Below, in pieces: positions 3,347-59,476 of a stretch of 64,000 bases of DNA. The notes under the pieces are model-generated. The model made no database searches and was not told the DNA's origin. It saw only the letters and a program-made list of their open reading frames with translations. The DNA is from Escherichia coli. Lineage in GTDB: Bacteria > Pseudomonadota > Gammaproteobacteria > Enterobacterales > Enterobacteriaceae. Position 1 is the first letter of the stretch, and each line of letters opens with the position of its first letter. Where the stretch lies: NCBI RefSeq assembly GCF_050920415.1, contig NZ_CP169309.1; one strand, 5' to 3'. Both the position numbers and the translations under genes were made by a program.

Positions 3347-6103
3347 TTACCCAAGAATTTTGCTGGCTTCGCGCGCCACATTATCCATCTCGTCCAGCAG
3401 TTCCAGAAGCTCTGGCTCCAAATCTTCTTCTTTAGTACCGCTGCGTAGCTGTTGTTCAATCAGTTGGCAGAGATTCTTCATACGCGGCACACCGCTATAG
3501 CCGCAACTGCCATGCAGTTTATGAATCAAATCAACCAGGCCTTCCGGGTTTTCTCCAACCAGCTGTTCCTCAACTTTGTTGCGAACTTCAGGCAGGAAAT
3601 CGAGTAACATTTGCAGCATATCGCGCGCTAAATCGGTTTTTCCTGCTGCCTGGCGTAGTGCCAGTTGCCAGTCGAGGGTCGCATTCGGGTTCACCACAAT
3701 TTCATTGACTTCGGGGGTCACGACGCGAGAGGAAATACCGCTGCCAGGCTTGTAGCGCAACAGCAAATTATGCAATCGTTCTTCTTCAATCGGTTTCGCC
3801 AGATAATCGCTCATCCCTGCGCCAAGCAGCTTCTCTTTTTGCCCGGCCATTGCATGCGCCGTTACCGCGATAACCGGCGTTTGTTGCTGATGTGGGAGCT
3901 GGTGGATGAGTTCGCAGGCCCGAATTCCGTCCATGTCCGGCATTTGAATATCCATTAAGATCAGATCGAACGGCATCTGTTTCGCCCGTTCAACGGCCTG
4001 ATGCCCGCTATCGCAAAGCTCTACATGTTGCACCATATCTTCCAGCAATGCGCCGATAAGTTTCAGGTTAGCGGGGTTGTCATCAACCGCCATGACTGTC
4101 ATTGCCAGCTTACTTTCATCGGTTACAGGCAAAAGCGTGTTTTGTTTGTGATGACAAAATTCCGTCAGGGCAGGGAACAGGCGCGTAGGTGTTAATGGTT
4201 TCAGCAGACACGCGCCGATACCATCTTGCTTAAGTTTTTCAGCATTGACTTGTGCATGGCAAGGAAGTGCCAGCATCAGAAAATCGGTCATCGATACCGC
4301 TTTCGCTAATCGCTCATGTTGCATTGTTAGCGGCTCGCGGAAGGTCACCGCAATGCCTAATAACATCATGTCGTAATGCGCGGGAGGCAGCGCGGAGAAC
4401 GTTGGGCTATAAACCACTTCCAGCGGCGTTTCACTTAAAATATCCAGCGTGCATTGCGCTGCTGCGGAGTTTGGTTCGACATAGGCCAGGCGCTTGCCGG
4501 CGAGGCACTGGGTGGATGGCCCTTCGATAATAATGTTCGGATTCAGATCGAGATTAATGTGGAACCAGAAAGTTGAACCGCGATTCGGCTGGCTATGGAA
4601 CGAAATATCGCCGCCCATTTCATTAACCAGTTTTTGTGTAATCACCAGCCCCAGCCCGGTGCCACCATGACGGCGGGAAATACTGGCATCAGCCTGTCGG
4701 AAGGCCTGGAATAAGCGCGATTGATCGCGTTCAGGAATACCAATGCCGGTATCCCGAATCTGCACTTCAATCTGCACTTTGGTATTACTCAGCGCACGTT
4801 TTTCTACCAGAATATCAATGTTGCCATTCTCGGTGAATTTAATTGCATTCCCTACCAGGTTAGTGATGATTTGCTGTAATCGCAGTGGGTCGCCAATTAC
4901 GTTATCGGGCACGTCGCTCTTAATATTGAGCGTCAGTTCCAGCCCTTTATCGTGAGAAGAATGTGCCAGCAGGGTAACGACTTCATCCAGCGTGCTGCGT
5001 AGTGGGAATGGAATACTTTCCAGAATCAGCTTACCTGCTTCCAGTTTCGAGAAGTCGAGAACATCATTAATAATTGCCAGCAAATTATTTGCCGAACGTT
5101 CAATCGTATTCAGGTGATCGCGCTGCGTTGGCGTTAATTCTGTTTTCAGCGTCAGGCGGGTAAAGCCAATAACACCATTCAGTGGTGTACGCAGCTCGTG
5201 TGACATATTTGCCAGAAACTCGGATTTAATACGCGCCGCTTCCTGGGCGCGCTTTTTCGCCAGATCCAACTCAACGTTCTGAATTTCCATCTGCTCCAGC
5301 GTTTCACGTAGATCGGACGTCGCCTGGTCGATATTGTGCTGCATCTCTTCGTGATAAGCTGCCAGCGACATTGCCATCGAGTTGATACCGTTTTTCAGCA
5401 TATCCAGCTCGCCGAGCATAAATCCTTCCACCCGGCTGTCGAGTTGCCCGCGACGGATGCGGTCGACGGTATTCACCATGTTGCGAATCGGACCGGTTAC
5501 ATCGCGCATTAAGCGCCAGCCAAAAATAAGCGCAATACCGATACAAAACAGCATCATCACGCTGGAAATAAAGATCTCTTTATATTGCTGCAAGCGAACC
5601 GATTTAAGATCCAGCTCAAGCGCAATATATCCCAACATATTTTGACTATTTTTGGCATCGCTACTGGGCGATTCGTCGGGGGAGTAACTCTCAGAAATAA
5701 TCGGCGTGCGGAGGATCATAATATCGCCGTCACGAGTGACAGTGAGCTGGCGAGGAAACGGCACGTTGCTGCCGAGCTGCATTGATGAGGGATCAAGATG
5801 AAAATTGGAGGTGACAAAGAGTCGGTTATTTTCATCATAAACCGAAATCGCGCGAACAATATCGGAATGGCGACGATGCAGTACGCTTATTAACTGACCG
5901 ATAGATTCGCGATTTTGCAGGCTCATGCCATATTCAGTAGAAACTGCAAGCGGCTCAATAATGCTGGCTCCGGCATCTTCCAGTTGACGCTGCAAGTCGT
6001 TATAGCGATGCACAACGAAAAAGATACTCAGCAATAAACCAATAAGGACGGTCGGTGCCAGGATCAGAATCATCATGCGTGCGCGCAGGCTGTAGTTGGT
6101 CAT
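3347..6103 (-). CDS. barA: hybrid sensor histidine kinase BarA (HAMP, HisKA/HATPase, receiver, Hpt)
   Basis: 918-aa ORF; H-box SHELRTPLN, receiver [14 protein letters not shown]-terminal Hpt region. Confidence 0.95.
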
Positions 6104-7508: not shown

Positions 7509-9743
7509 ATGGTTGCGGTAAGAAGTGCACATATCAATAAGGCTGGTGAATTTGATCCGGAAAAATGGATCGCAAGTCTGGGTATTACCAGCCAGAAGTC
7601 GTGTGAGTGCTTAGCCGAAACCTGGGCGTATTGTCTGCAACAGACGCAGGGGCATCCGGATGCCAGTCTGTTATTGTGGCGTGGTGTTGAGATGGTGGAG
7701 ATCCTCTCGACATTAAGTATGGACATTGACACGCTGCGGGCGGCGCTGCTGTTCCCTCTGGCGGATGCCAACGTAGTTAGCGAAGATGTGCTGCGTGAGA
7801 GCGTCGGTAAGTCGGTCGTTAACCTTATTCACGGCGTGCGTGATATGGCGGCGATCCGCCAGCTGAAAGCGACGCATACCGATTCTGTTTCCTCCGAACA
7901 GGTCGATAACGTTCGCCGGATGTTATTGGCGATGGTCGATGATTTCCGCTGTGTGGTTATCAAACTGGCAGAGCGTATTGCTCATCTGCGAGAAGTGAAA
8001 GACGCGCCGGAAGATGAACGCGTACTGGCGGCAAAAGAGTGCACCAATATCTACGCGCCGTTGGCGAACCGTCTTGGGATTGGGCAACTGAAATGGGAGC
8101 TGGAAGATTACTGCTTCCGTTATCTCCACCCGACCGAATACAAACGCATCGCAAAACTGCTGCATGAACGCCGTCTCGACCGCGAACACTATATCGAAGA
8201 GTTTGTCGGTCATCTGCGCGCTGAGATGAAAGCTGAAGGCGTTAAAGCTGAAGTGTATGGTCGTCCGAAACACATCTACAGTATCTGGCGCAAAATGCAG
8301 AAAAAGAACCTCGCCTTCGATGAGCTGTTTGATGTGCGTGCGGTACGTATTGTCGCCGAGCGTTTACAGGATTGTTATGCCGCACTGGGGATAGTGCACA
8401 CTCACTATCGCCACCTGCCGGATGAGTTTGACGATTACGTTGCTAACCCGAAACCAAACGGTTATCAGTCTATTCATACCGTGGTTCTGGGGCCGGGTGG
8501 CAAAACCGTTGAGATCCAAATCCGCACCAAACAGATGCATGAAGATGCAGAGTTGGGTGTTGCTGCGCACTGGAAATATAAAGAAGGCGCGGCAGCTGGC
8601 GGCGCACGTTCGGGACATGAAGACCGAATTGCCTGGCTGCGTAAACTGATTGCGTGGCAGGAAGAGATGGCTGATTCCGGCGAAATGCTCGACGAAGTAC
8701 GCAGCCAGGTTTTTGACGACCGGGTGTATGTCTTTACGCCGAAAGGCGATGTCGTTGATTTGCCTGCGGGATCAACGCCGCTGGACTTCGCTTACCACAT
8801 CCACAGTGATGTCGGACACCGCTGCATCGGGGCAAAAATTGGCGGGCGCATTGTGCCGTTCACCTACCAGTTGCAGATGGGCGACCAGATTGAAATTATC
8901 ACCCAGAAACAGCCGAACCCCAGCCGTGACTGGTTAAACCCAAACCTCGGTTACGTCACAACCAGCCGTGGGCGTTCGAAAATTCACGCCTGGTTCCGTA
9001 AACAGGATCGTGACAAAAATATTCTGGCAGGGCGGCAAATCCTTGACGACGAGCTGGAACATCTGGGGATCAGCCTGAAAGAAGCAGAAAAACATCTGCT
9101 GCCGCGTTACAACTTCAATGATGTCGACGAGTTGTTAGCAGCGATTGGTGGCGGGGATATCCGTCTCAATCAGATGGTGAACTTCCTGCAATCGCAATTT
9201 AATAAGCCGAGTGCCGAAGAGCAGGATGCCGCCGCGCTGAAGCAACTTCAGCAAAAAAGCTATACGCCGCAAAACCGCAGTAAAGATAACGGTCGTGTGG
9301 TGGTAGAAGGTGTCGGCAACCTGATGCACCACATCGCGCGCTGCTGTCAGCCGATTCCTGGAGATGAGATTGTCGGTTTCATTACCCAGGGGCGCGGTAT
9401 TTCAGTACACCGCGCCGATTGCGAACAACTGGCGGAACTGCGCTCCCATGCGCCAGAACGCATTGTTGACGCGGTATGGGGCGAGAGTTACTCCGCCGGA
9501 TATTCGCTGGTGGTCCGCGTGGTGGCTAATGATCGTAGTGGGTTGTTACGTGATATCACGACCATTCTCGCCAACGAGAAGGTGAACGTGCTTGGCGTTG
9601 CCAGCCGTAGCGACACCAAACAGCAACTGGCAACCATCGACATGACTATTGAGATTTACAACCTGCAAGTGCTGGGCCGCGTGCTGGGTAAACTCAACCA
9701 GGTGCCGGATGTTATCGACGCGCGTCGACTGCATGGGAATTAA
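7509..9743 (+). CDS. relA: GTP pyrophosphokinase ((p)ppGpp synthetase I)
   Basis: 744-aa ORF; RelA/SpoT synthetase domain, TGS and ACT C-terminal domains. Confidence 0.95.
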   Translation: MVAVRSAHINKAGEFDPEKWIASLGITSQKSCECLAETWAYCLQQTQGHPDASLLLWRGVEMVEILSTLSMDIDTLRAALLFPLADANVVSEDVLRESVGKSVVNLIHGVRDMAAIRQLKATHTDSVSSEQVDNVRRMLLAMVDDFRCVVIKLAERIAHLREVKDAPEDERVLAAKECTNIYAPLANRLGIGQLKWELEDYCFRYLHPTEYKRIAKLLHERRLDREHYIEEFVGHLRAEMKAEGVKAEVYGRPKHIYSIWRKMQKKNLAFDELFDVRAVRIVAERLQDCYAALGIVHTHYRHLPDEFDDYVANPKPNGYQSIHTVVLGPGGKTVEIQIRTKQMHEDAELGVAAHWKYKEGAAAGGARSGHEDRIAWLRKLIAWQEEMADSGEMLDEVRSQVFDDRVYVFTPKGDVVDLPAGSTPLDFAYHIHSDVGHRCIGAKIGGRIVPFTYQLQMGDQIEIITQKQPNPSRDWLNPNLGYVTTSRGRSKIHAWFRKQDRDKNILAGRQILDDELEHLGISLKEAEKHLLPRYNFNDVDELLAAIGGGDIRLNQMVNFLQSQFNKPSAEEQDAAALKQLQQKSYTPQNRSKDNGRVVVEGVGNLMHHIARCCQPIPGDEIVGFITQGRGISVHRADCEQLAELRSHAPERIVDAVWGESYSAGYSLVVRVVANDRSGLLRDITTILANEKVNVLGVASRSDTKQQLATIDMTIEIYNLQVLGRVLGKLNQVPDVIDARRLHGN

Positions 9744-9752
9744 TCATGCATA

Positions 9753-9790
9753 GCTGGATATGGCATCAGCCGTATCCAGCGGTATCTTTT
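9753..9790 (+). terminator. hairpin downstream of relA (possible terminator)
   Basis: GCTGGATA-12 nt loop-TATCCAGC followed by ggtatctttt; the T tract is weak. Confidence 0.4.
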
Positions 9791-9838
9791 ACTCGAAGGT
9801 ATTACACCTGACAGACCCGCAATTTTCAGGACATTCTA

Positions 9839-10630
9839 ATGAATCAAATCGACCGTTTGCTCACTATTATGCAGCGCCTGCGCGACCCGGAAAACGGCTG
9901 CCCGTGGGATAAAGAGCAGACATTTGCCACCATTGCACCTTACACCCTTGAAGAAACCTACGAGGTGCTGGACGCCATTGCCCGTGAAGATTTTGACGAT
10001 CTGCGCGGTGAACTCGGCGATCTGCTGTTCCAGGTGGTGTTTTACGCACAAATGGCCCAGGAAGAAGGGCGCTTTGACTTTAATGATATTTGCGCTGCGA
10101 TTAGCGATAAATTAGAGCGTCGCCATCCGCATGTTTTTGCTGACAGTTCTGCCGAAAACAGTCGTGAAGTGCTTGCCCGTTGGGAGCAAATCAAAACCGA
10201 AGAGCGCGCGCAGAAAGCGCAGCATTCGGCGCTGGACGATATTCCTCGTAGTTTACCGGCTTTAATGCGTGCGCAAAAAATCCAGAAACGTTGCGCCAAC
10301 GTTGGCTTCGATTGGACGACGCTTGGTCCGGTAGTCGATAAAGTCTACGAAGAGATCGACGAGGTGATGTACGAGGCGCGGCAGGCTGTTGTCGACCAGG
10401 CTAAACTGGAGGATGAAATGGGTGACCTGCTGTTTGCCACGGTCAACATGGCCCGCCATTTAGGGACAAAAGCAGAGATTGCACTACAAAAAGCCAATGA
10501 AAAATTCGAGCGCCGTTTTCGCGAAGTGGAGCGTATTGTTGCCGCGCGTGGACTGGAAATGACAGGTGTAGACCTCGAAACAATGGAAGAAGTCTGGCAA
10601 CAGGTAAAACGGCAGGAAATTGATCTCTAA
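9839..10630 (+). CDS. mazG: nucleoside triphosphate pyrophosphohydrolase MazG
   Basis: 263-aa ORF; tandem MazG domains with EExYE-type motifs (LEETYEVLDAI, YEEIDEVMYE). Confidence 0.9.
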   Translation: MNQIDRLLTIMQRLRDPENGCPWDKEQTFATIAPYTLEETYEVLDAIAREDFDDLRGELGDLLFQVVFYAQMAQEEGRFDFNDICAAISDKLERRHPHVFADSSAENSREVLARWEQIKTEERAQKAQHSALDDIPRSLPALMRAQKIQKRCANVGFDWTTLGPVVDKVYEEIDEVMYEARQAVVDQAKLEDEMGDLLFATVNMARHLGTKAEIALQKANEKFERRFREVERIVAARGLEMTGVDLETMEEVWQQVKRQEIDL

Positions 10631-10842
10631 GGGAATTACGTGGTCAAGCGCGATTTGTGTCATTTTTTAAATGACAAGCGCTTGATTTGCGTCAAAAACA
10701 TTTACCCCAAAGGGGCTATTTTCTCACTCCTGATTTCAATGGTGAGCTGGCGAAGAGGAGGGATAATGAAAGTTTGTGGCACAGGTCATGTTCGGGTATA
10801 CTGCTTTCCCGTCCTGGTTATTCCATCGTCTTTTCAACCTAA

Positions 10843-12495
<1,653 letters not shown>

Positions 12496-13940: not shown

Positions 13941-14813
13941 TTACCAGCGACCGGAAGCACCGCCACCGCCAGAAGAACCGTCACCTCCGCTAAATCCGCC
14001 ACCACTTGAGCCGCCACCAGAACCGCCGCTGTCTGAATGATAACTTCTACCTGATGCTTTTTTCTGTGGGACACATAACCAGGTAAAGACCATAATGATG
14101 GTGAAAGTAAAAAAGAAGGAAAATACAGCAATGGAAAAAGTTTGATCGGAGAACAGGAATAAATCTATAAGATAGACTGTTGAAATACAAACACTGCTTT
14201 TAAATGCCCGACAAAAATTATTGCCTTGATGAAAAAACCAGAAAGGGAAGAACATCACTGCAAATACCCAAAAAATAGCAAAGTAGTAATGATCACTGGA
14301 AGACGCTGATTCACTTTCTGAAGGATTAGACGAATATTGGTGTTGTGAAGTGAGTTGGTTATTCAAAGCGATTATAGCTAACTCTCATCCCTTAGCTAAT
14401 TTTTGTTTTTTAAAGGCGGGTATCATGATGTTACGGATGATATTGCCAGCCAGAGCATCGGTTACCTTTTCTTCCAGCCCATAACCTACCTGAATGCGGA
14501 CAGTTCGATCCGACCAGGCAACAACGATCAGTATCCCATCATTACGTTTGGCATCTCCTAAACGCCAATTGTCAAAAACCCTTGTAGCATATTGTTCAAT
14601 AGAATCGCCTCCGGTGGATGGCACTATTAATACAGCGACCTGTGCCCGTGTTTTTTGTGTAATATCCTGCAGCTGTTGTGTCAGTGATTGTTGTTCAGAC
14701 GTGCTTAAGGTACCAGTAATATCGGTCACCTGTTGGCGCAGCTCCGGCACAGCAATTTGCTGGGCAAGCACAGGAAGGCACCATAAAGTGAGTAGAAAAA
14801 GGATTATACGCAT
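13941..14813 (-). pseudogene. YgcG-like TPM-domain membrane protein, copy 3, interrupted by an in-frame TGA
   Basis: ORFs 14385..14825 (signal peptide + TPM domain) and 13941..14366 (TM helices + Gly/Ser tail ...GGGGASGRW) are in the same frame, separated only by TGA at 14385..14387 and 6 sense codons; the downstream ORF begins with TTG, not ATG. Confidence 0.6.
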
Positions 14814-14818
14814 AACGA

Positions 14819-15966
14819 TCACCAACGGTCGGATGAACCGCCACCGCCAGAAGAACCGCCGCCACCGCGGAAAGAGTTTTTCGACGAAGAACGAGAATGA
14901 GCATTACGATTCCCCGTTTTCTTGTTGCTTTTATGCCCTGATCCCAGTTTAAGATTGCCAGTAAATTTGGCCACAATGATCAGCAGAACGATGCCAGCAA
15001 TGGTTATTGGGCCGATAAAATGATCAATTAGCCCAATAATTGTTGAGATGAACGCAATATCTTTATTACTGGCGAATACCAGGCACCATCCCACAACAAT
15101 TATCAGCAGCACGACAAACAATGAATTTCGTCCTGATTCACGAACCTGCGGAGCCTTCTTTTGTTTTTTCACTTTAGCGTTTTTATTTTGGGGGGCCAGC
15201 ATCATAGGAAATGTGCGGCATATATTAAAAACTACCGCGAGACGCTGCCAGCAGATTGCTGCGAAAAATAAACTAAAACAAACGACCGATACCCGCCGAA
15301 TGATGACATCGTCCTGAAAGGAGAAAAACCAGACCATAGGAGTAATCATCGATATCATCCATATGCCAGGCCCGGGACGGCTGGTAAATCGCCAGAGGAC
15401 AACGATGGCAACGATCATCAGTAATGTCCAGGCAAGACATGGCAGCGAGCGTTGCGGATTAGCAAACAGATGATTGGCTAAAGCATCCAAAGGGCTAAGA
15501 TTCGCTTTTATATAGGTAAACTGTGCGATGCCTTCAATTCCCTGCGTTAACCCGGAGAAGAGATTATTTTTTTGAATTCCGGTTGCATATGGTAATGAAC
15601 AATTTGCGCAGCTTGTTCCGGTGGCAGCATCTCTTCCAGTCCATGCCCAATCTTCATTGACGCCAGCCCTTCCGGCCAAACGACGAGAATTAAGATACCT
15701 TCGCCGTACCGCTTCTCTCCAACAGGTTTCCAGTGATATAACCCGTAGCTTTGCGAGGCTGCAAGTTTAATGTCTTTACCCCCAGTGGTCAGCGTTACCA
15801 ACACGGCAACCTGAAAGTGGTTTTGCTGCTCGAGAGTCTGTAATTGTTGAGTTAAAGCAGTTTGTTCTTCTGTCGTTAATGTCCCGGTTAAGTCAGTTAC
15901 TGAAGGCAATTGTTCAGCGAATGCCTGGAAACCACATAGCATCAGAAGTAAGAGAAAAATACGCAT
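14819..15966 (-). pseudogene. YgcG-like TPM-domain membrane protein, copy 2, frame-shifted at an A7 run
   Basis: ORF 15547..15966 (signal + TPM domain) and ORF 14819..15679 (5 TM helices + tail ...[15 protein letters not shown]) overlap in different frames; similarity to the intact paralog continues across the shift (LFSGLTQGIEGI vs LAGGLQKGISDI); switch point is the T7/A7 tract at 15567..15573. Confidence 0.6.
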
Positions 15967-15980
15967 TTCAATTCCTTTTG

Positions 15981-16919
15981 TTACCAGCGCCCGGAGGCGC
16001 CACCGCCGCCAGATGAACCGCCGCCGCCGCTGAAATTATCATTGTCAAAAGAGGATGAAGAGGAAGATGACGACGATGATGAAGAACGCCTGGAGGCCGA
16101 GTTACTTCTTTCGTAATGTGACGGTCGGTTGGCACTGCGCATCGAATCCCGAACCTTTTTGCCGAAGGGGGTAAAAGCGATGGCGACAGCCAGGAACGGT
16201 GTGGCGAAGCAGAGTAATGTTGCGAGTACTCCCCAGCTTCCGCTGAAACCTGCTATAGGTAAAACAAAGGCCAGTACAATAGCTGTGAAGCAAATTAGTC
16301 CCAGCGTTTTGACATATCCTCTGGCGGAAATAAAGGTCAGTACTATTGCCCAGACTAACAAAGCCCACCAACCGCTAAAGGGCAAAGGGTGATCGGTCGG
16401 TGTTATCGCTTCTAAATTATTCCCCGTCAGACGATTATCAATATCGCTTATTCCCTTTTGCAAGCCGCCAGCAAGGTCGCCATTTTTAAATGCCGGAATA
16501 ATACTGTTGCGAATAATTTTCCCGGACTGCGCATCCGTAATAACGCCTTCCAGTCCGTAACCGATTTCAATACGCACGGTATGATCCTGCCAGGCGACTA
16601 ACAGTAGAACGCCATCATCGCGGTCTTTATCTCCGGGTTTCCAGCTATCGAATACCCGCGTTGCGTACTGCTCGATGGTTTCATCGCCTGTGGTTTCAAC
16701 CACTAACACGACCAGTTGTGCGTGGCTTTTTTGCGTCAGCTCTTTAATCTGATTGGTCAACGTATTTACTTCATCGTTCGTCAATTTGCCGGTTAAGTCA
16801 TTCACATACCTGGGTGATTCAGGCACTGGAATTTGTATGGCAAACACAGATGAACAAAAGAAAGCCATAAGGAAGATAAAATTTCGCACAGGACTTCCTC
16901 GCTTAATGAGCATTAGCAT
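15981..16919 (-). CDS. YgcG-family TPM-domain membrane protein, intact copy (312 aa)
   Basis: signal peptide, TPM domain, 3 TM helices, poly-Ser tract, C-terminal [15 protein letters not shown]; probably the ygcG ortholog but which copy is orthologous cannot be decided from sequence alone. Confidence 0.8.
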   Translation of the reverse strand: MLMLIKRGSPVRNFIFLMAFFCSSVFAIQIPVPESPRYVNDLTGKLTNDEVNTLTNQIKELTQKSHAQLVVLVVETTGDETIEQYATRVFDSWKPGDKDRDDGVLLLVAWQDHTVRIEIGYGLEGVITDAQSGKIIRNSIIPAFKNGDLAGGLQKGISDIDNRLTGNNLEAITPTDHPLPFSGWWALLVWAIVLTFISARGYVKTLGLICFTAIVLAFVLPIAGFSGSWGVLATLLCFATPFLAVAIAFTPFGKKVRDSMRSANRPSHYERSNSASRRSSSSSSSSSSSSFDNDNFSGGGGSSGGGGASGRW

Positions 16920-17505
16920 TCTGGCTAAAATCTATTGTTGGGGTTTTACTCACAGCGGCGACATCATCCGGTAAATAATTTTTCTTCGGTGTGTAATCCA
17001 TGACTTTTGCGGTTAACACTGCGGGGAATTTGCGGATAGTGACATTATATTGTTCGATGGCTTTAATATATCTTCCTCGCGCAACGGCAATTCGATTTTC
17101 ACTTCCTTCGAGCTGTACCATCAAATTTTGATAGAGTTCCTGGGCCTTTAGCTCAGGGTAACGTTCACTAATTATCGTTAACTGACCGAGAGTGCGAGAC
17201 ACCTGCGCCTGGGCCTGTTGCCAGACTTGTAATTTTTGTTCATCCCCCGGAGTTTGCTGAAGATCGCTACTGGCGCGATTAGCCTGACTACGTGCCAATG
17301 TTACGGCTTCCAGTACCTCTTGTTCATGGCTGGAATAACCTTTAATACTAGCGACAAGATTAGGAATAAGATCGGCGCGACGTTGATATTGATTTAATAC
17401 CTCAGACCAGGAAGCGTTAACCTGCTCATCATAGGTTTGAATATCGTTATATCCACAGCCTGATAAATTGAAAATAAATATAATTACGATGAATATTCTG
17501 AGCAT
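16903..17505 (-). CDS. LemA-family lipoprotein
   Basis: 200-aa ORF with lipobox (FNLSGCGY) and LemA-like coiled region; its 3' end overlaps the start of the TPM gene (translational coupling). Confidence 0.8.
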   Translation of the reverse strand: MLRIFIVIIFIFNLSGCGYNDIQTYDEQVNASWSEVLNQYQRRADLIPNLVASIKGYSSHEQEVLEAVTLARSQANRASSDLQQTPGDEQKLQVWQQAQAQVSRTLGQLTIISERYPELKAQELYQNLMVQLEGSENRIAVARGRYIKAIEQYNVTIRKFPAVLTAKVMDYTPKKNYLPDDVAAVSKTPTIDFSQNANAH

Positions 17506-17677
17506 GGTTAAATTCCTTTTAATTAATTCCTTAAAACATAATACGCCACTTCATTTTATTCTTTATGATCTAATCCACTTTTTGCCTTAAACCTGCCTGT
17601 AACAGAATGTTAATAAGACATGATTGTTGTGGCAGGATCTGCAATAATTAACAATTATCCACTTCACAGAGAATGCT

Positions 17678-18349
17678 ATGCAGTACCCGATTAACGAGAT
17701 GTTCCAGACCCTGCAAGGTGAGGGTTACTTTACCGGCGTCCCCGCCATTTTTATTCGTTTACAGGGATGCCCGGTCGGCTGTGCCTGGTGCGACACCAAA
17801 CACACCTGGGAAAAGCTTGAGGATCGGGAAGTCTCCCTTTTCAGCATTCTGGCGAAGACCAAAGAGAGTGATAAGTGGGGGGCGGCGAGCAGTGAAGATT
17901 TGCTGGCTGTCATTGGTCGTCAGGGATACACCGCGCGGCATGTGGTGATTACGGGTGGTGAGCCTTGCATTCATGATTTGCTGCCACTGACTGACCTGCT
18001 CGAAAAGAACGGTTTTAGCTGCCAGATCGAAACCAGCGGTACTCATGAAGTACGCTGCACGCCGAATACCTGGGTTACCGTATCGCCAAAGCTGAACATG
18101 CGCGGCGGCTATGAAGTGTTGTCACAGGCACTGGAGCGAGCCAACGAAATCAAGCATCCAGTGGGACGCGTACGTGATATTGAAGCACTGGATGAACTAC
18201 TGGCAACGCTGACCGATGATAAACCACGAGTCATTGCACTGCAGCCAATTAGCCAGAAGGACGATGCCACACGTTTGTGCATTGAAACCTGTATTGCGCG
18301 TAACTGGCGTTTATCGATGCAAACACATAAATATTTAAATATTGCCTGA
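17678..18349 (+). CDS. queE: 7-carboxy-7-deazaguanine synthase (radical SAM)
   Basis: 223-aa ORF; Cys motif CPVGCAWC; MQYPINEMFQTLQGEGYFTG. Confidence 0.92.
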   Translation: MQYPINEMFQTLQGEGYFTGVPAIFIRLQGCPVGCAWCDTKHTWEKLEDREVSLFSILAKTKESDKWGAASSEDLLAVIGRQGYTARHVVITGGEPCIHDLLPLTDLLEKNGFSCQIETSGTHEVRCTPNTWVTVSPKLNMRGGYEVLSQALERANEIKHPVGRVRDIEALDELLATLTDDKPRVIALQPISQKDDATRLCIETCIARNWRLSMQTHKYLNIA

Positions 18350-18539
18350 TTAAACATTTATAAGCGTTATAAATGGGTGGAACCTGTAAAGACTTCCACT
18401 CATTTATATTCTTTGTCGCCTCTGAAAAAACTCCATTTTGCCCATTCTGGACTAATCATTATCATTCTCTACAAATTCTCTGGCGTTAATTTTTCGTTGG
18501 AGTGAAAATTATTGCAGTGAAGTTTGGTAGATTTTAGTG

Positions 18540-18687
18540 GGTATAGAGTTATTTTAAATATTTACTTTTTTAATCAATGGATTAAGTGTTCTTTAACATA
18601 ATGGATGTGTTGTTTGTGTGATCCTGTAAAGTTGGTAGATTGTGACTGGCTTAAAAAATCATTAATTAATAATAGGTTATGTTTAGA
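18540..18687 (+). promoter_or_regulatory. putative leader of the queE-proximal CRISPR array
   Basis: AT-rich sequence immediately 5' of the first repeat, same polarity as the repeats. Confidence 0.4.
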
Positions 18688-18899
18688 GAGTTCCCCACGT
18701 CAGCGGGGATAAACCGCTATACGAAGTTATTAGGTCCGAAGAGGAGTTGAGTTCCCCACGTCAGCGGGGATAAACCGTTTACGTGTTATCGCGCACCGGC
18801 GACGGTGTGGAGTTCCCCGCGCCAGCGGGGATAAACCGATTCAGCAAATAGCGAATTTCATAAATATGATGTGTTCCCCGCGCCAGCGGGGATAAACCA
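18688..18899 (+). CRISPR. type I-E CRISPR array, 4 repeats / 3 spacers (ygcE-queE array)
   Basis: 29-bp repeats at 18688, 18749, 18810, 18871 with 32-bp spacers (period 61); repeats 1-2 are the variant GAGTTCCCCaCGtCAGCGGGGATAAACCG, repeat 3 is canonical, repeat 4 is degenerate (GtG..., terminal a). Confidence 0.9.
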
Positions 18900-19352
18900 C
18901 CATATAACCCGTTATCTCTTTCTCAAGTTTTTATATTAGCTGTACTTGTAATAAGCAACATATCCACATAACACCTCATGTTCAAAATAGTTCCCCATGC
19001 CAGATAAGTTCACAATTATCGATACAAAAAATCAAATTTAATCAAAGTGTTATATGTATAATCCTTAAACCGTTAAGAAATTTTAATATATTATTTTTTT
19101 AATATTAATTAATGCCTGTTAATTTTTTCTTTAGAATAACAGTGTATTTTTTAAGCTTGTTATTCATTGATTAAGTAATAAATCTGGAAGTTTGTCTTTG
19201 TTTTGAGGCTAATGAGTGGTTTTACATAACCGCCTCTATACGCTGTTGATGAATAGTTCTTATGAATAAAGATATCCAGTTCATACTTTAAGTGAAAATT
19301 GATAAAGTGCGATTCGTATTGTCTTTTATTCTAAAGACATCGAGTGTAGTTA

Positions 19353-19490
19353 ATATTCCTTGTAAAAACAGGGATAAACCGAACTAGTTAAAGTTTTTAT
19401 TATGTTCCCTGCATCAGCGGGGATAAACCGGACTTGTTATCATTTTTTAAGTTGTCGAACTTATGTTCCCCGCGCCAGCGGGGATAACCA
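19353..19490 (+). CRISPR. degenerate CRISPR remnant (2-3 decayed repeats)
   Basis: repeat-like units ending at 19381, 19430 and 19490 (atGTTCCCtGCatCAGCGGGGATAAACCG; atGTTCCCCGCGCCAGCGGGGATAACCA) with one 32-bp spacer 19431..19462. Confidence 0.6.
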
Positions 19491-19536
19491 TTCAGGTATG
19501 TTCAGGCCGGGCAGTTTCCCGCCCGGTCTTCCTCAC

Positions 19537-27994: not shown

Positions 27995-28105
27995 TGTTGC
28001 CGGATGATCCTGCCTACGGTTCTTGCCAGGGGACTTGTAGGCCTGATAAGACGCGTCAAGCGTCGCATCAGGCGCTGAATGTCGGATGTGGCGTGCAGCC
28101 TACAA
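27995..28105. repeat. REP/BIME palindromic elements
   Basis: GCCGGATG... and GTAGGCCTGATAAGACGCG...CGCATCAGGC motifs typical of E. coli REP units. Confidence 0.65.
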
Positions 28106-44408: not shown

Positions 44409-44513
44409 AAACAAAGAATTAGCTGATCTTTAATAATAAGGAAATGTTACATTAAGGTTGGTGGGTTGTTTTTATGGGAAAAAATGCTTTAAGAACAAAT
44501 GTATACTTTGAGA
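44409..44513 (+). promoter_or_regulatory. CRISPR leader
   Basis: AT-rich about 105 bp between the cas2 stop and the first repeat. Confidence 0.7.
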
Positions 44514-45701
44514 GAGTTCCCCGCGCCAGCGGGGATAAACCGCTCGCGTATACTCTCTGCCAACGTCTCCAGATGAGTTCCCCGCGCCAGCGGGGATAAA
44601 CCGGCGGGATTATCGGCACTGACGTCGGCGCTGTGGAGTTCCCCGCGCCAGCGGGGATAAACCGGGTCGCTTCCATATATGAACCTTGAGGATTAGGAGT
44701 TCCCCGCGCCAGCGGGGATAAACCGGTTCCATGCACTGCCCGCAGTGTCAGCCGTACGAGTTCCCCGCGCCAGCGGGGATAAACCGGTAAATCATACGTT
44801 GGCATCAGTATTTTTCTCGAGTTCCCCGCGCCAGCGGGGATAAACCGACTCCGCGCCATTTGAGAATTCTCAGTTCTGCGAGTTCCCCGCGCCAGCGGGG
44901 ATAAACCGCTACTGCTGTCAGACGGCAGGGCAAAACAGCGGAGTTCCCCGCGCCAGCGGGGATAAACCGGACGTGCGGATGCTGTTTCTGGTTTTACCTC
45001 CGAGTTCCCCGCGCCAGCGGGGATAAACCGTTTTTTCTCAGCGTCTGGCAGAGCTAATCGCCGAGTTCCCCGCGCCAGCGGGGATAAACCGGTGTCAAAT
45101 TTCATGTAATTGATGATCCAGCTGAGTTCCCCGCGCCAGCGGGGATAAACCGGGTATTTCTCGTTAACACGGTCGTATCAAAACGAGTTCCCCGCGCCAG
45201 CGGGGATAAACCGAGGGGTTGCAACCATAGCCCTTAGTTGATTGCGAGTTCCCCGCGCCAGCGGGGATAAACCGCCAGTGGATTTTAATAAACTCTCCAG
45301 CGAGCAGAGTTCCCCGCGCCAGCGGGGATAAACCGTTCGCCACGTCAGGCGTGATTTCCTGCACTGAGAGTTCCCCGCGCCAGCGGGGATAAACAGGGCG
45401 CGTCTGCGCCCGCTAGGACTCGTGTCAAGAGTTCCCCGCGCCAGCGGGGATAAACCGGGAGTTCAGACATAGGTGGAATGATGGACTACGAGTTCCCCGC
45501 GTTAGCGGGGATAAACCGCCCGGTAGCCAGGTTTGCAACGCCTGAACCGAGAGTTCCCCGCGCCAGCAGGGATAAATCGGCAACGACGGTGAGATTTCAC
45601 GCCTGACGCTGGTGTTCCCCGCATCAGCGGGGATAAACCGGGCGCACTGGATGCGATGATGGATATCACTTAGAATTCCCCGCCCCTGCGGTAGAACTCC
45701 C
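44514..45701 (+). CRISPR. type I-E CRISPR array, 20 repeats / 19 spacers
   Basis: 29-bp repeat GAGTTCCCCGCGCCAGCGGGGATAAACCG at 44514 and every 61 bp to 45673; 32-bp spacers; variants in repeats 15 (AAACaG), 17 (GCGttAGC), 18, 19 and a degenerate terminal repeat. Confidence 0.97.
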
Positions 45702-55788: not shown

Positions 55789-56781
55789 ATGAGTCAGAAT
55801 ACGCTGAAAGTTCATGATTTAAATGAAGATGCGGAATTTGATGAGAACGGAGTTGAGGTTTTTGACGAAAAGGCCTTAGTAGAAGAGGAACCCAGTGATA
55901 ACGATTTGGCCGAAGAGGAACTGTTATCGCAAGGGGCCACACAGCGTGTGTTGGACGCGACTCAGCTTTACCTTGGTGAGATTGGTTATTCACCACTGTT
56001 AACGGCCGAAGAAGAAGTTTATTTTGCGCGTCGCGCACTGCGAGGAGATGTTGCCTCCCGCCGCCGGATGATCGAGAGTAACTTGCGTCTGGTGGTAAAA
56101 ATTGCCCGCCGTTATGGCAATCGTGGTCTGGCTTTGCTGGATCTTATCGAAGAGGGCAACCTGGGGCTGATCCGCGCGGTAGAGAAGTTTGACCCGGAAC
56201 GTGGTTTCCGCTTCTCAACATACGCAACCTGGTGGATTCGCCAAACGATCGAACGGGCGATTATGAACCAAACCCGTACTATTCGTTTGCCGATTCACAT
56301 CGTAAAGGAGCTGAACGTTTACCTGCGAACCGCACGTGAGTTGTCCCATAAGCTGGACCACGAACCAAGTGCGGAAGAGATCGCAGAGCAGCTGGATAAG
56401 CCAGTTGATGACGTCAGCCGTATGCTTCGTCTTAACGAGCGCATTACCTCGGTAGACACCCCGCTGGGTGGAGATTCCGAAAAAGCGTTGCTGGACATCC
56501 TGGCCGATGAAAAAGAAAACGGCCCGGAAGATACCACGCAAGATGACGATATGAAACAAAGCATCGTCAAATGGCTGTTCGAACTGAACGCCAAACAGCG
56601 TGAAGTGCTGGCACGTCGATTCGGTTTGCTGGGGTACGAAGCGGCAACACTGGAAGATGTAGGTCGTGAAATTGGCCTCACCCGTGAACGTGTTCGCCAG
56701 ATTCAGGTTGAAGGCCTGCGCCGTTTGCGCGAAATCCTGCAAACGCAGGGGCTGAATATCGAAGCGCTGTTCCGCGAATAA
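55789..56781 (+). CDS. rpoS: RNA polymerase sigma factor RpoS (sigma-38)
   Basis: ORF 55753..56781; start taken at [18 protein letters not shown] (330 aa); full length with no internal stop; codon 33 encodes Glu. Confidence 0.96.
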
Positions 56782-56796
56782 GTAAGCATCTGTCAG

Positions 56797-56832
56797 AAAG
56801 GCCAGTCTCTTATGAGGCTGGCCTTTTTCTTT
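56797..56832 (+). terminator. rpoS rho-independent terminator
   Basis: AAAGGCCAG-loop-CTGGCCTTTttcttttg. Confidence 0.7.
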
Positions 56833-56901
56833 TGTATGGGGAGTTGGTGTGTTTCGTCGCCTGGATAAGACACGTCAGCGTCCCATCCGGCAATCAACAT
56901 C

Positions 56902-57309
56902 CTATTTGCTCATCATCTTGCGCACCAGCTGCATAAACAGCTCCTGCTCTTCTCCACTCAAACGCCCCAAAAATTCCTCATCCACACTGTCGCCAATCGG
57001 TATCGCCGCAGCAAGTACCTTTTCTCCTTCGGCAGTCAGCCAGACAAAGCGTCGCCGCTTATCAGCGGTGTCATGTTCACGTCTGACTAAGCCACGATTT
57101 TCCATTCTTGCCAACATTTCTGCCAGCGTTGCTTTGGTGCTGACGGCTGCTTCCATCAGTGCCACCTGTTCGATACCAGGTTTATCAGCAATGGCGCGCA
57201 TCACCGCGTACTGTGGTTTGGTCAGGTCAGGTAACTCGTGCTGCCAGCGGGCCGTATGCTGCTGAAAAAGCTGTCGTAACTGATGGAACGCTTTATTTCG
57301 TAACGCCAT
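56902..57309 (-). CDS. MarR/SlyA-family transcriptional regulator
   Basis: 135-aa ORF with winged-helix MarR signature; divergent from the decarboxylase operon. Confidence 0.8.
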   Translation of the reverse strand: MALRNKAFHQLRQLFQQHTARWQHELPDLTKPQYAVMRAIADKPGIEQVALMEAAVSTKATLAEMLARMENRGLVRREHDTADKRRRFVWLTAEGEKVLAAAIPIGDSVDEEFLGRLSGEEQELFMQLVRKMMSK

Positions 57310-57424
57310 GTAAACTCCGGGCTAATTCTCTGTCGCTATCATAGCGGTTTTTCAGTGACGAAGAAGATGTTGTTACTTTTCAATCCTTGCCGCTGTGGAA
57401 ATGAAGGAGTATGTTAATAATAAC

Positions 57425-57438
57425 GTTCGTATACGAAC
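57425..57438. promoter_or_regulatory. perfect 14-bp palindrome, candidate MarR operator
   Basis: GTTCGTATACGAAC about 18 bp upstream of the ubiX-like start, in the divergent promoter region. Confidence 0.45.
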
Positions 57439-57455
57439 AATTAAGATAGTAAGCA

Positions 57456-58049
57456 ATGAAACTGATCGTCGGGATGACAGGGGCTACCGGTGCGCCTCTT
57501 GGTGTGGCATTACTGCAAGCGCTGCGGGAGATGCCGAATGTCGAGACTCATCTGGTGATGTCGAAGTGGGCGAAAACCACTATTGAACTGGAAACGCCTT
57601 ACAGCGCTCGCGATGTTGCCGCCCTCGCTGACTTCAGCCATAACCCGGCGGATCAGGCTGCGACCATCTCTTCCGGCTCCTTTCGTACCGACGGCATGAT
57701 CGTTATTCCATGCAGTATGAAAACGCTCGCCGGTATCCGCGCTGGTTACGCCGATGGTCTCGTAGGGCGCGCGGCGGACGTCGTGCTCAAAGAAGGCCGC
57801 AAACTGGTGCTGGTGCCGCGTGAAATGCCGCTTAGCACCATCCATCTCGAAAATATGCTCGCACTTTCGCGCATGGGCGTGGCGATGGTGCCGCCGATGC
57901 CTGCCTTTTATAACCATCCCGAAACGGTAGATGACATTGTCCACCACGTGGTAGCCCGCGTGCTGGATCAATTTGGCCTCGAACATCCTCACGCCAGGCG
58001 CTGGCAAGGGTTGCCGCAGGCCCGGAATTTTTCTCAGGAGAATGAATAA
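57456..58049 (+). CDS. ecdB: UbiX/Pad1-family flavin prenyltransferase (decarboxylase subunit B)
   Basis: 197-aa ORF; MKLIVGMTGATGAPLG flavoprotein motif. Confidence 0.85.
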   Translation: MKLIVGMTGATGAPLGVALLQALREMPNVETHLVMSKWAKTTIELETPYSARDVAALADFSHNPADQAATISSGSFRTDGMIVIPCSMKTLAGIRAGYADGLVGRAADVVLKEGRKLVLVPREMPLSTIHLENMLALSRMGVAMVPPMPAFYNHPETVDDIVHHVVARVLDQFGLEHPHARRWQGLPQARNFSQENE

Positions 58050-59476
58050 TGGCATTTGATGATTTACGCAGCTTTTTACAGGCGCTCGACGACCAGGGGC
58101 AATTGCTGAAAATCAGCGAAGAGGTGAATGCCGAGCCGGATCTGGCTGCCGCTGCCAACGCCACCGGGCGTATCGGCGACGGCGCGCCCGCGCTGTGGTT
58201 TGATAATATTCGCGGCTTTACCGATGCGCGCGTGGCGATGAACACCATCGGCTCCTGGCAGAACCACGCGATTTCCCTCGGGCTGCCACCGAACACACCG
58301 GTTAAAAAACAGATTGATGAGTTTATCCGCCGCTGGGATAACTTTCCCATTGCCCCGGAACGCCGCGCCAATCCTGCCTGGGCGCAGAACACCGTCGATG
58401 GCGACGAGATCAATTTGTTCAATATCCTGCCGCTGTTTCGTTTAAACGATGGCGATGGCGGTTTCTATCTCGACAAAGCGTGCGTGGTTTCCCGCGATCC
58501 GCTCGATCCGGATAACTTCGGCAAGCAGAACGTCGGCATCTATCGCATGGAAGTGAAGGGTAAGCGTAAGCTCGGCCTGCAACCGGTGCCGATGCACGAT
58601 ATCGCCCTGCATCTGCATAAAGCAGAAGAGCGCGGTGAAGATCTGCCGATTGCGATCACGCTCGGTAACGATCCGATCATCACCCTGATGGGCGCCACCC
58701 CGCTGAAATATGATCAATCGGAGTACGAAATGGCGGGCGCACTACGCGAAAGCCCGTACCCGATCGCCACCGCCCCGCTGACCGGTTTTGATGTGCCGTG
58801 GGGCTCGGAGGTGATCCTCGAAGGGGTAATCGAAAGCCGTAAACGCGAGATTGAAGGGCCGTTCGGTGAATTTACCGGCCACTACTCCGGCGGGCGCAAC
58901 ATGACCGTGGTGCGCATCGATAAAGTCTCTTACCGCACCAAACCGATTTTTGAATCGCTCTATCTCGGTATGCCGTGGACCGAAATCGACTACCTGATGG
59001 GGCCAGCCACCTGTGTGCCGCTGTATCAGCAACTGAAAGCCGAGTTCCCGGAAGTGCAGGCGGTGAACGCTATGTACACCCACGGCCTGCTGGCGATTAT
59101 CTCCACCAAAAAACGCTATGGCGGCTTTGCCCGCGCAGTGGGCCTGCGTGCGATGACCACGCCGCACGGTCTGGGTTATGTGAAGATGGTGATTATGGTC
59201 GATGAAGACGTTGACCCGTTCAACCTGCCGCAGGTGATGTGGGCGCTCTCGTCGAAAGTGAACCCGGCAGGCGATCTGGTGCAACTGCCGAATATGTCCG
59301 TGCTGGAACTCGACCCAGGCTCAAGCCCGGCGGGGATCACCGATAAGCTGATTATCGACGCCACCACGCCTGTCGCCCCGGACAACCGTGGCCACTACAG
59401 CCAGCCGGTGGTGGACTTACCGGAAACCAAAGCCTGGGCTGAAAAACTGACCGCTATGCTGGCCGCACGTAAATAA
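58049..59476 (+). CDS. ecdC: UbiD-family (hydroxyarylic acid) decarboxylase subunit C
   Basis: 475-aa ORF with UbiD family signature; start overlaps the ubiX-like stop. Confidence 0.85.
   Translation: MAFDDLRSFLQALDDQGQLLKISEEVNAEPDLAAAANATGRIGDGAPALWFDNIRGFTDARVAMNTIGSWQNHAISLGLPPNTPVKKQIDEFIRRWDNFPIAPERRANPAWAQNTVDGDEINLFNILPLFRLNDGDGGFYLDKACVVSRDPLDPDNFGKQNVGIYRMEVKGKRKLGLQPVPMHDIALHLHKAEERGEDLPIAITLGNDPIITLMGATPLKYDQSEYEMAGALRESPYPIATAPLTGFDVPWGSEVILEGVIESRKREIEGPFGEFTGHYSGGRNMTVVRIDKVSYRTKPIFESLYLGMPWTEIDYLMGPATCVPLYQQLKAEFPEVQAVNAMYTHGLLAIISTKKRYGGFARAVGLRAMTTPHGLGYVKMVIMVDEDVDPFNLPQVMWALSSKVNPAGDLVQLPNMSVLELDPGSSPAGITDKLIIDATTPVAPDNRGHYSQPVVDLPETKAWAEKLTAMLAARK

Follow-up and report, generated by a model that had tools for sequence, protein, structure and literature searches.

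A mazEF-free relA-mazG junction of probably ancestral type in Escherichia coli, with a REP-like hairpin in its spacer

The DNA analyzed here, a stretch of 64,000 nucleotides from Escherichia coli (hereafter the window), matches the complete RefSeq chromosome NZ_CP169399.1 of E. coli MFDS1022581 at 100% identity, with window position 1 corresponding to position 1,027,191 of that record. It carries relA and mazG on the same strand with a gap of only 95 bp, as a putative bicistronic operon. The junction is made up of the following features, given in window coordinates:

7509-9743, + strand: relA (GTP diphosphokinase), 744 aa, TAA stop codon at 9741-9743; NCBIfam equivalog NF008124 at 1678 bits; present in the ORF list and in RefSeq
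9744-9838, + strand: relA-mazG intercistronic spacer, exactly 95 bp, without coding capacity as judged from its letters
9744-9804, + strand: allele-specific segment, 61 bp; the K-12 counterpart is 697 bp long (L002:1245-1941)
9753-9780, + strand: REP-like palindrome, 12-bp stem including one U-G pair, 4-nt loop, followed by GGTATCTTTT
9781-9803, + strand: second hairpin, weak and G-U-rich, adjoining the first; predicted from the minimum free energy structure of the spacer
9805-9838, + strand: mazG leader common to K-12, 34 bp, Shine-Dalgarno AGGA at 9828-9831; near-identical in the window, strain AVS0744, and K-12
9839-10630, + strand: mazG (nucleoside triphosphate pyrophosphohydrolase), 263 aa; TIGR00444 at 416 bits and NF007113 at 369 bits; present in the ORF list and in RefSeq

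Matches of both gene products to their NCBIfam models far exceed the cut-offs, and sequence, ORF list, and RefSeq annotation agree on the immediate succession of relA and mazG at a distance of 95 bp that a preliminary description of this DNA had reported. That description had also denied the spacer any ORF, and none indeed lies within 9744-9838: the sole ORF touching it (9760-9912, 50 aa) only overlaps the spacer, enters mazG out of frame, and is unannotated. RefSeq annotation of NZ_CP169399.1 places no feature between the two genes, and an Rfam scan of positions 9400-10100 at E ≤ 1 yielded no match in the spacer; a viral Rfam match at 9407-9477 lies inside relA and was set aside as a chance hit. 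Among the Citrobacter and Salmonella spacers compared, most retain the motif TTTCAGGA ahead of the mazG ATG.

The junction was aligned with that of K-12 and with that of a second mazEF-free strain, AVS0744. Two K-12 records display the gene order relA-mazE-mazF-mazG, as given in the preliminary description. Homology between window and K-12 runs through relA to the second base of the stop codon (TAA in the window, TAG in K-12) and resumes at CACCTGACAGACCCGCAATTTTCAGGA, 34 bp ahead of the mazG ATG. Enclosed between these points, the 61 bp of the window face the 697 bp of K-12 that contain the mazEF promoter/operator, mazE, and mazF, so that the junction alignment proposed in the preliminary description is not gap-free. 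The alleles thus differ by a net 636 bp, exactly the amount by which BLAST spans are longer at mazEF-positive (2337 bp) than at mazEF-free loci (1701 bp). A leftward extension of the right-hand homology from CACCTGAC, suggested by weak MAFFT matches at 9781-9803, was rejected, as 1501 of 5000 shuffles score equally; since matches left of CACCTGAC are not significant, the boundary was put at 9804/9805. The two alleles hence differ by replacement, 61 against 697 bp, and not by a clean indel. Common to both are relA, the last 34 bp of the mazG leader, mazG, and the neighborhood barA-rlmD-relA...mazG-pyrG-eno, whereas the palindromic mazEF promoter/operator together with mazE and mazF in K-12 contrasts with a 61-bp segment bearing a REP-like hairpin in the window. 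Identity to K-12 amounts to 97.0-97.6% on both sides of the junction and across the surrounding 14 kb; identity to ST131 is ~97%, evenly along the region, comparable to that between K-12 and ST131 (97.2-97.8%).

Further segments of the window were noted in the course of these comparisons. Downstream of eno, positions 13941-17505 hold three tandem TPM-domain pseudogenes (with an internal stop, a frameshift, and a truncation) and a LemA-family gene; the K-12 counterpart comprises ygcG and yqcG, and ~14600-17470 corresponds to nothing in the compared loci of K-12 and ST131. The adjacent queE segment (17471-18839) is ~92% identical to K-12 and ST131 versus ~97% for the rest, a local rise in divergence. 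Type I-E-like CRISPR repeats (GTTCCCCGCGCCAGCGGGGATAAACCG, 61-bp period, 4 + 2 copies) lie between queE and ygcE at 18682-18902 and 19396-19494. They are unannotated in RefSeq, where only the larger array after cas2e (44453-45274) is annotated, and K-12 has an annotated CRISPR array at the corresponding place. Just downstream of rpoS, at positions 56536-59357, lie genes for three subunits (B, C, D) of hydroxyarylic acid decarboxylase, along with one for a MarR-type regulator.

The junction alignment and tblastn searches both bear out that mazEF is missing from its canonical site, which was the central claim of the preliminary description. Using the K-12 proteins as queries against the 64-kb window, the best E-values were 3.1 for MazF and 1.2 for MazE, and nothing similar to either protein was retrieved at E ≤ 0.1 from another 130 kb of this chromosome. 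The mazE promoter/operator palindrome (TCTACAATGTAGA... in K-12) is likewise not in the spacer, falling wholly within alignment columns occupied by K-12 only. Every defining feature of a MazEF type II toxin-antitoxin module was thus tested at the site and none was found, so that it does not belong to this family. An ectopic K-12-type mazEF copy in the source genome is very unlikely, because such copies almost never occur elsewhere in the genome collection described below. As a separate observation, the MazEF paralog pair chpS-chpB is missing from its K-12 position on the window's own chromosome, where ppa stands next to ytfP; the 377-bp gap between them (L088:11696-12072; record positions 4,621,695-4,622,071) holds no annotated gene and no MazE/MazF-like coding sequence.

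The distribution of the two alleles was determined over 5,426 complete E. coli genomes, with a 63-bp segment serving as probe for the empty site. The locus from the relA 3' end to mazG is present in 5,425 genomes. K-12-type mazEF segments were identified in 4,419 genomes (~81%) at 4,422 places, none of them on plasmids, leaving only three places beyond one per genome, and the empty-site probe matched 1,006 genomes (18.5%), at one place in each. Since 4,419 and 1,006 add up to the 5,425 genomes with the locus, each of these genomes in effect carries one allele or the other, and not both. The mazEF-free junction is thus no peculiarity of this strain; genomes carrying it include O25b:H4-ST131, O2:K2:H1, O139:H1, and PCN033. 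Alignments with AVS0744, ST131, and E69 place the window squarely in this class, with relA and mazG side by side on one strand, a 95-bp spacer, and the same junctions relative to K-12. Gene order, spacer length, boundaries, and hairpin are shared with mazEF-free E. coli such as UTI89 and ST131 (PMC7167474), but 4-5 of the 63 positions in the window copy deviate from the common empty allele (92-94% identity). Over 11 kb, only one other complete genome, N96, attains 99% identity or more (99.7%), and the next reach 98.2% with no break in the alignment; by this measure MFDS1022581 belongs to a rare lineage.

The 61-bp segment contains a hairpin whose arms, GCTGGATA (9753-9760) and TATCCAGC (9773-9780), had been recognized beforehand and extend to a 12-bp stem with seven G-C pairs. 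Folded as RNA, it reaches a predicted -22.5 kcal/mol (z = -6.3), and none of 200 shuffles was as stable; for the whole 95-bp spacer, the predicted value is -31.9 kcal/mol (z = -4.7). The stem is retained in ST131, E69, and SCPM-O-B-8794, the last with a compensatory change from T-A to C-G. The palindrome of SCPM-O-B-8794, GTAGCCGGATACGG...CCGTATCCGG, is nearer to REP than that of the window, and the tetranucleotide at this point reads GTAG, followed by CCGGATA, in SCPM-O-B-8794 and ATAG in the window. REP elements are imperfect palindromes of ~30-35 bp with GTAG/CTAC at one end, situated extragenically within an operon or at its 3' end; the palindrome and its position fit, and in alignment the hairpin coincides with the first REP of Citrobacter spacers. 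It shares with the REP/BIME sequences of Citrobacter and Salmonella relA-mazG spacers the position, a few bases past the relA stop, and the orientation, (G/A)TAG followed by a CNGGATA...TATCCNG palindrome; unlike in those spacers, the palindrome of the window is degenerate and a second REP is no longer recognizable. A search for the canonical REP 17-mer GTAGGCCGGATAAGGCG with up to three mismatches identified two real REPs, at 28037 and 34619 in the window, but gave no match at the hairpin, and the 63-bp segment carrying the hairpin occurs once per genome, where REP elements are multicopy. Full membership of the REP family is not claimed on account of these two results, and the hairpin is best called a decayed REP-like relic, rather than an active family member.

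For an outgroup view, a MazG scan with one genome per species was used, which yielded 80 Enterobacterales loci among the matches listed. This sample is limited, and the matches listed included none bearing the names E. fergusonii, E. marmotae, or E. ruysiae. About 70 of the 80 species representatives, again among the matches listed, have relA directly before mazG with a spacer of 40-145 bp. REP palindromes, GTAGGCCGGATAAGGCG...CATCCGGC and GCCYGATG...ATCRGGCCTAC, make up these spacers in Citrobacter and S. enterica subsp. arizonae. The 95-bp spacer of C. gillenii, which has two REPs, aligns over its full length with the 95 bp of the window, whose hairpin falls on the first of them. The likeness to Salmonella drawn in the preliminary description is valid for S. 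enterica subsp. arizonae, where a single representative has a 74-bp relA-mazG spacer; some Salmonella are reported to carry parDE at this spot (PMC7167474). Within Escherichia, two divergent species representatives labeled E. coli possess the same 95-bp allele, SCPM-O-B-8794 with 94.4% and E69 with 95.8% identity to the window.

A different picture emerged from the E. albertii type strain (NBRC 107761), whose spacer measures 261 bp (L008:2240-2500) and displays REP/BIME palindromes between K-12-type cassette ends. On the left, the relA end and ~33 bp of the mazE promoter side are preserved with 88% identity to the K-12-type cassette; on the right, the mazF 3' end and the mazG leader are preserved with 92% identity. 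Like the window, this locus has REP sequences in the spacer and no intact mazE or mazF between relA and mazG, but it keeps both cassette ends, and the window keeps neither. The locus as a whole is mosaic, with relA ~91% and mazG-pyrG ~95.5% identical to E. coli. Judged by these scars, the E. albertii locus represents a true secondary loss of mazEF, and the relic shows that the cassette either is old or crosses species by recombination.

With outgroup collinearity, the end-to-end alignment with C. gillenii, the presence of the allele in two divergent Escherichia lineages, and the absence of E. albertii-type scars, the most economical reading of the sequences is that the empty allele is ancestral and that mazEF is an insertion which replaced the REP-bearing 61 bp, a polarity derived by parsimony over the outgroup sample. 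We therefore consider it very probable that the window presents the ancestral, unoccupied relA-mazG junction, its spacer stemming from a REP/BIME-filled ancestor and its mazG being uncoupled from a toxin-antitoxin module. The 95-bp spacer would descend from the REP/BIME-filled spacer of related enterobacteria, and the mazEF cassette would either never have entered this allele or have been removed long ago by allelic replacement.

This last route, in which a lineage that once had mazEF recombined homologously with an empty-site donor and so recovered an empty allele of ancestral type, deserves separate weighing. Presence and absence of the cassette cut across lineages: ST131 and UTI89, assigned to B2 by the cited sources, lack it, and the adherent-invasive (AIEC) strain NRG857c carries a classic mazEF copy beside relA (PMC7232551), so that the polymorphism is not strictly lineage-bound. 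Such a pattern suggests either recombination or an old polymorphism, and the mosaic structure of the E. albertii locus likewise speaks for exchange in this region. Yet divergence does not jump at the junction of the window, where identity to K-12 stays at the level given above on either side, and the alignments to the nearest other genomes, at 98.2% over 11 kb, run through it unbroken. We thus regard replacement in this lineage as improbable; if true, it would alter the history of the site while leaving the nature of the feature unchanged, as the end state is the same. An ancient loss of mazEF may also have been followed by a spread of the empty allele through recombination.

Less probable still is a secondary deletion, that is, excision of mazEF from an ancestor with relA-mazEFG that left the 95-bp spacer behind. 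The prevalence of the cassette in E. coli could be taken to favor such an event, and E. albertii provides a proven case of loss at this position. However, the 61 bp of the window do not occur in K-12, so a simple deletion would not generate them; they align instead with the REP spacer of Citrobacter, and neither cassette end can be traced, in contrast to E. albertii. The same allele with the same boundaries is moreover present in 1,005 other E. coli and in the two divergent Escherichia lineages, and the window copy, with 4-5 of 63 bases unlike those of the common empty allele, has accordingly been resident for long. An assembly or annotation artefact, with mazEF collapsed or missed, has a negligible chance of being correct and was rejected in view of the identity to a complete RefSeq chromosome, the near-identical N96 locus, the occurrence of the junction in 1,006 independent complete genomes, and the empty six-frame search of the window for MazE and MazF.

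The ancestral, unoccupied junction would have consequences for mazG expression. In K-12, mazG is transcribed together with mazEF from promoters autoregulated by MazE/MazF, and REP elements in general stabilize the upstream message against 3' exonucleases and allow partial read-through. A sigma-70 consensus scan of positions 9500-10900 returned no promoter-like site, so there is no case for a mazG promoter within the spacer. In the proposed arrangement, transcription starting at the relA promoters would read through into mazG, whose own conserved Shine-Dalgarno sequence would serve its translation. The hairpin is probably an mRNA-stabilizing element or a partial terminator; acting as both on the relA-mazG transcript, it would shield the relA message against 3' exonucleases. 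A simple terminator scan called the hairpin with its GGTATCTTTT tract terminator-like, but the T-run is short, weak, interrupted, and set back from the stem, which makes terminator activity uncertain. Expression of mazG would not be coupled to a toxin-antitoxin module, given the mode of transcription in K-12, and the cell would be devoid of the MazF endoribonuclease. An undisturbed relA-mazG bicistronic operon has been described for many strains without these systems, e.g., UTI89 (Fraikin, Goormaghtigh & Van Melderen 2020, PMC7167474).

Other genera have unrelated genes at the same place. Superficieibacter sp. 1612_C1 carries parDE between relA and mazG (L021:1674-2286; ParD TIGR02606 at 86.5 bits, ParE PF05016 at 1.5e-11), a different cassette at the very spot of mazEF in E. 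coli. Buttiauxella agrestis ATCC 33320 has a 1.8-kb insert with ORFs at L045:841-2428, comprising an Hcp/TssD gene (TIGR03344 at 190 bits), a 261-aa ORF, and a 109-aa membrane ORF without NCBIfam match, which may constitute a type VI effector/immunity islet. The Superficieibacter and Buttiauxella data agree with the relA-mazG spacer being a hotspot. Going further, one could take the intact spacer for the ancestral integration site of mazEF, a REP/BIME-marked region entered repeatedly by unrelated cassettes (mazEF, parDE, and the Hcp-linked set); we put this forward tentatively, as an idea that we hold to be rather unlikely. If true, toxin-antitoxin cassettes would be moved by a mechanism that has REP palindromes as its target or substrate. 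Independently, a similar, hydrophobic ORF of ~110 aa without NCBIfam family was observed directly upstream of mazG in three genera, represented by Superficieibacter, Klebsiella spallanzanii, and Buttiauxella (L019:2066-2404, L037:2125-2460, and L045:2099-2428); in K. spallanzanii, fimbrial-type ORFs rather than relA precede it.

Collectively, the mazEF-free junction of MFDS1022581 is a real, common, and already known allele. The presence/absence polymorphism has been published, as has its uneven distribution among lineages; for phylogroups, the latter is attributed to Fiedoruk et al. 2015 as cited in PMC7167474. What is added here are the exact boundaries of the allele, its frequency of 18.5% among 5,426 complete genomes, and sequence evidence in favor of an ancestral empty site, and beyond annotation the importance of the finding is slight. 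For the biology of the strain, it means that ideas on MazF derived from K-12, such as roles in stress response, phage defense, and persistence, would not be applicable, because the strain very probably is without MazF and also lacks ChpS/ChpB at the K-12 position, and that its mazG would be free of MazE/MazF autoregulation.
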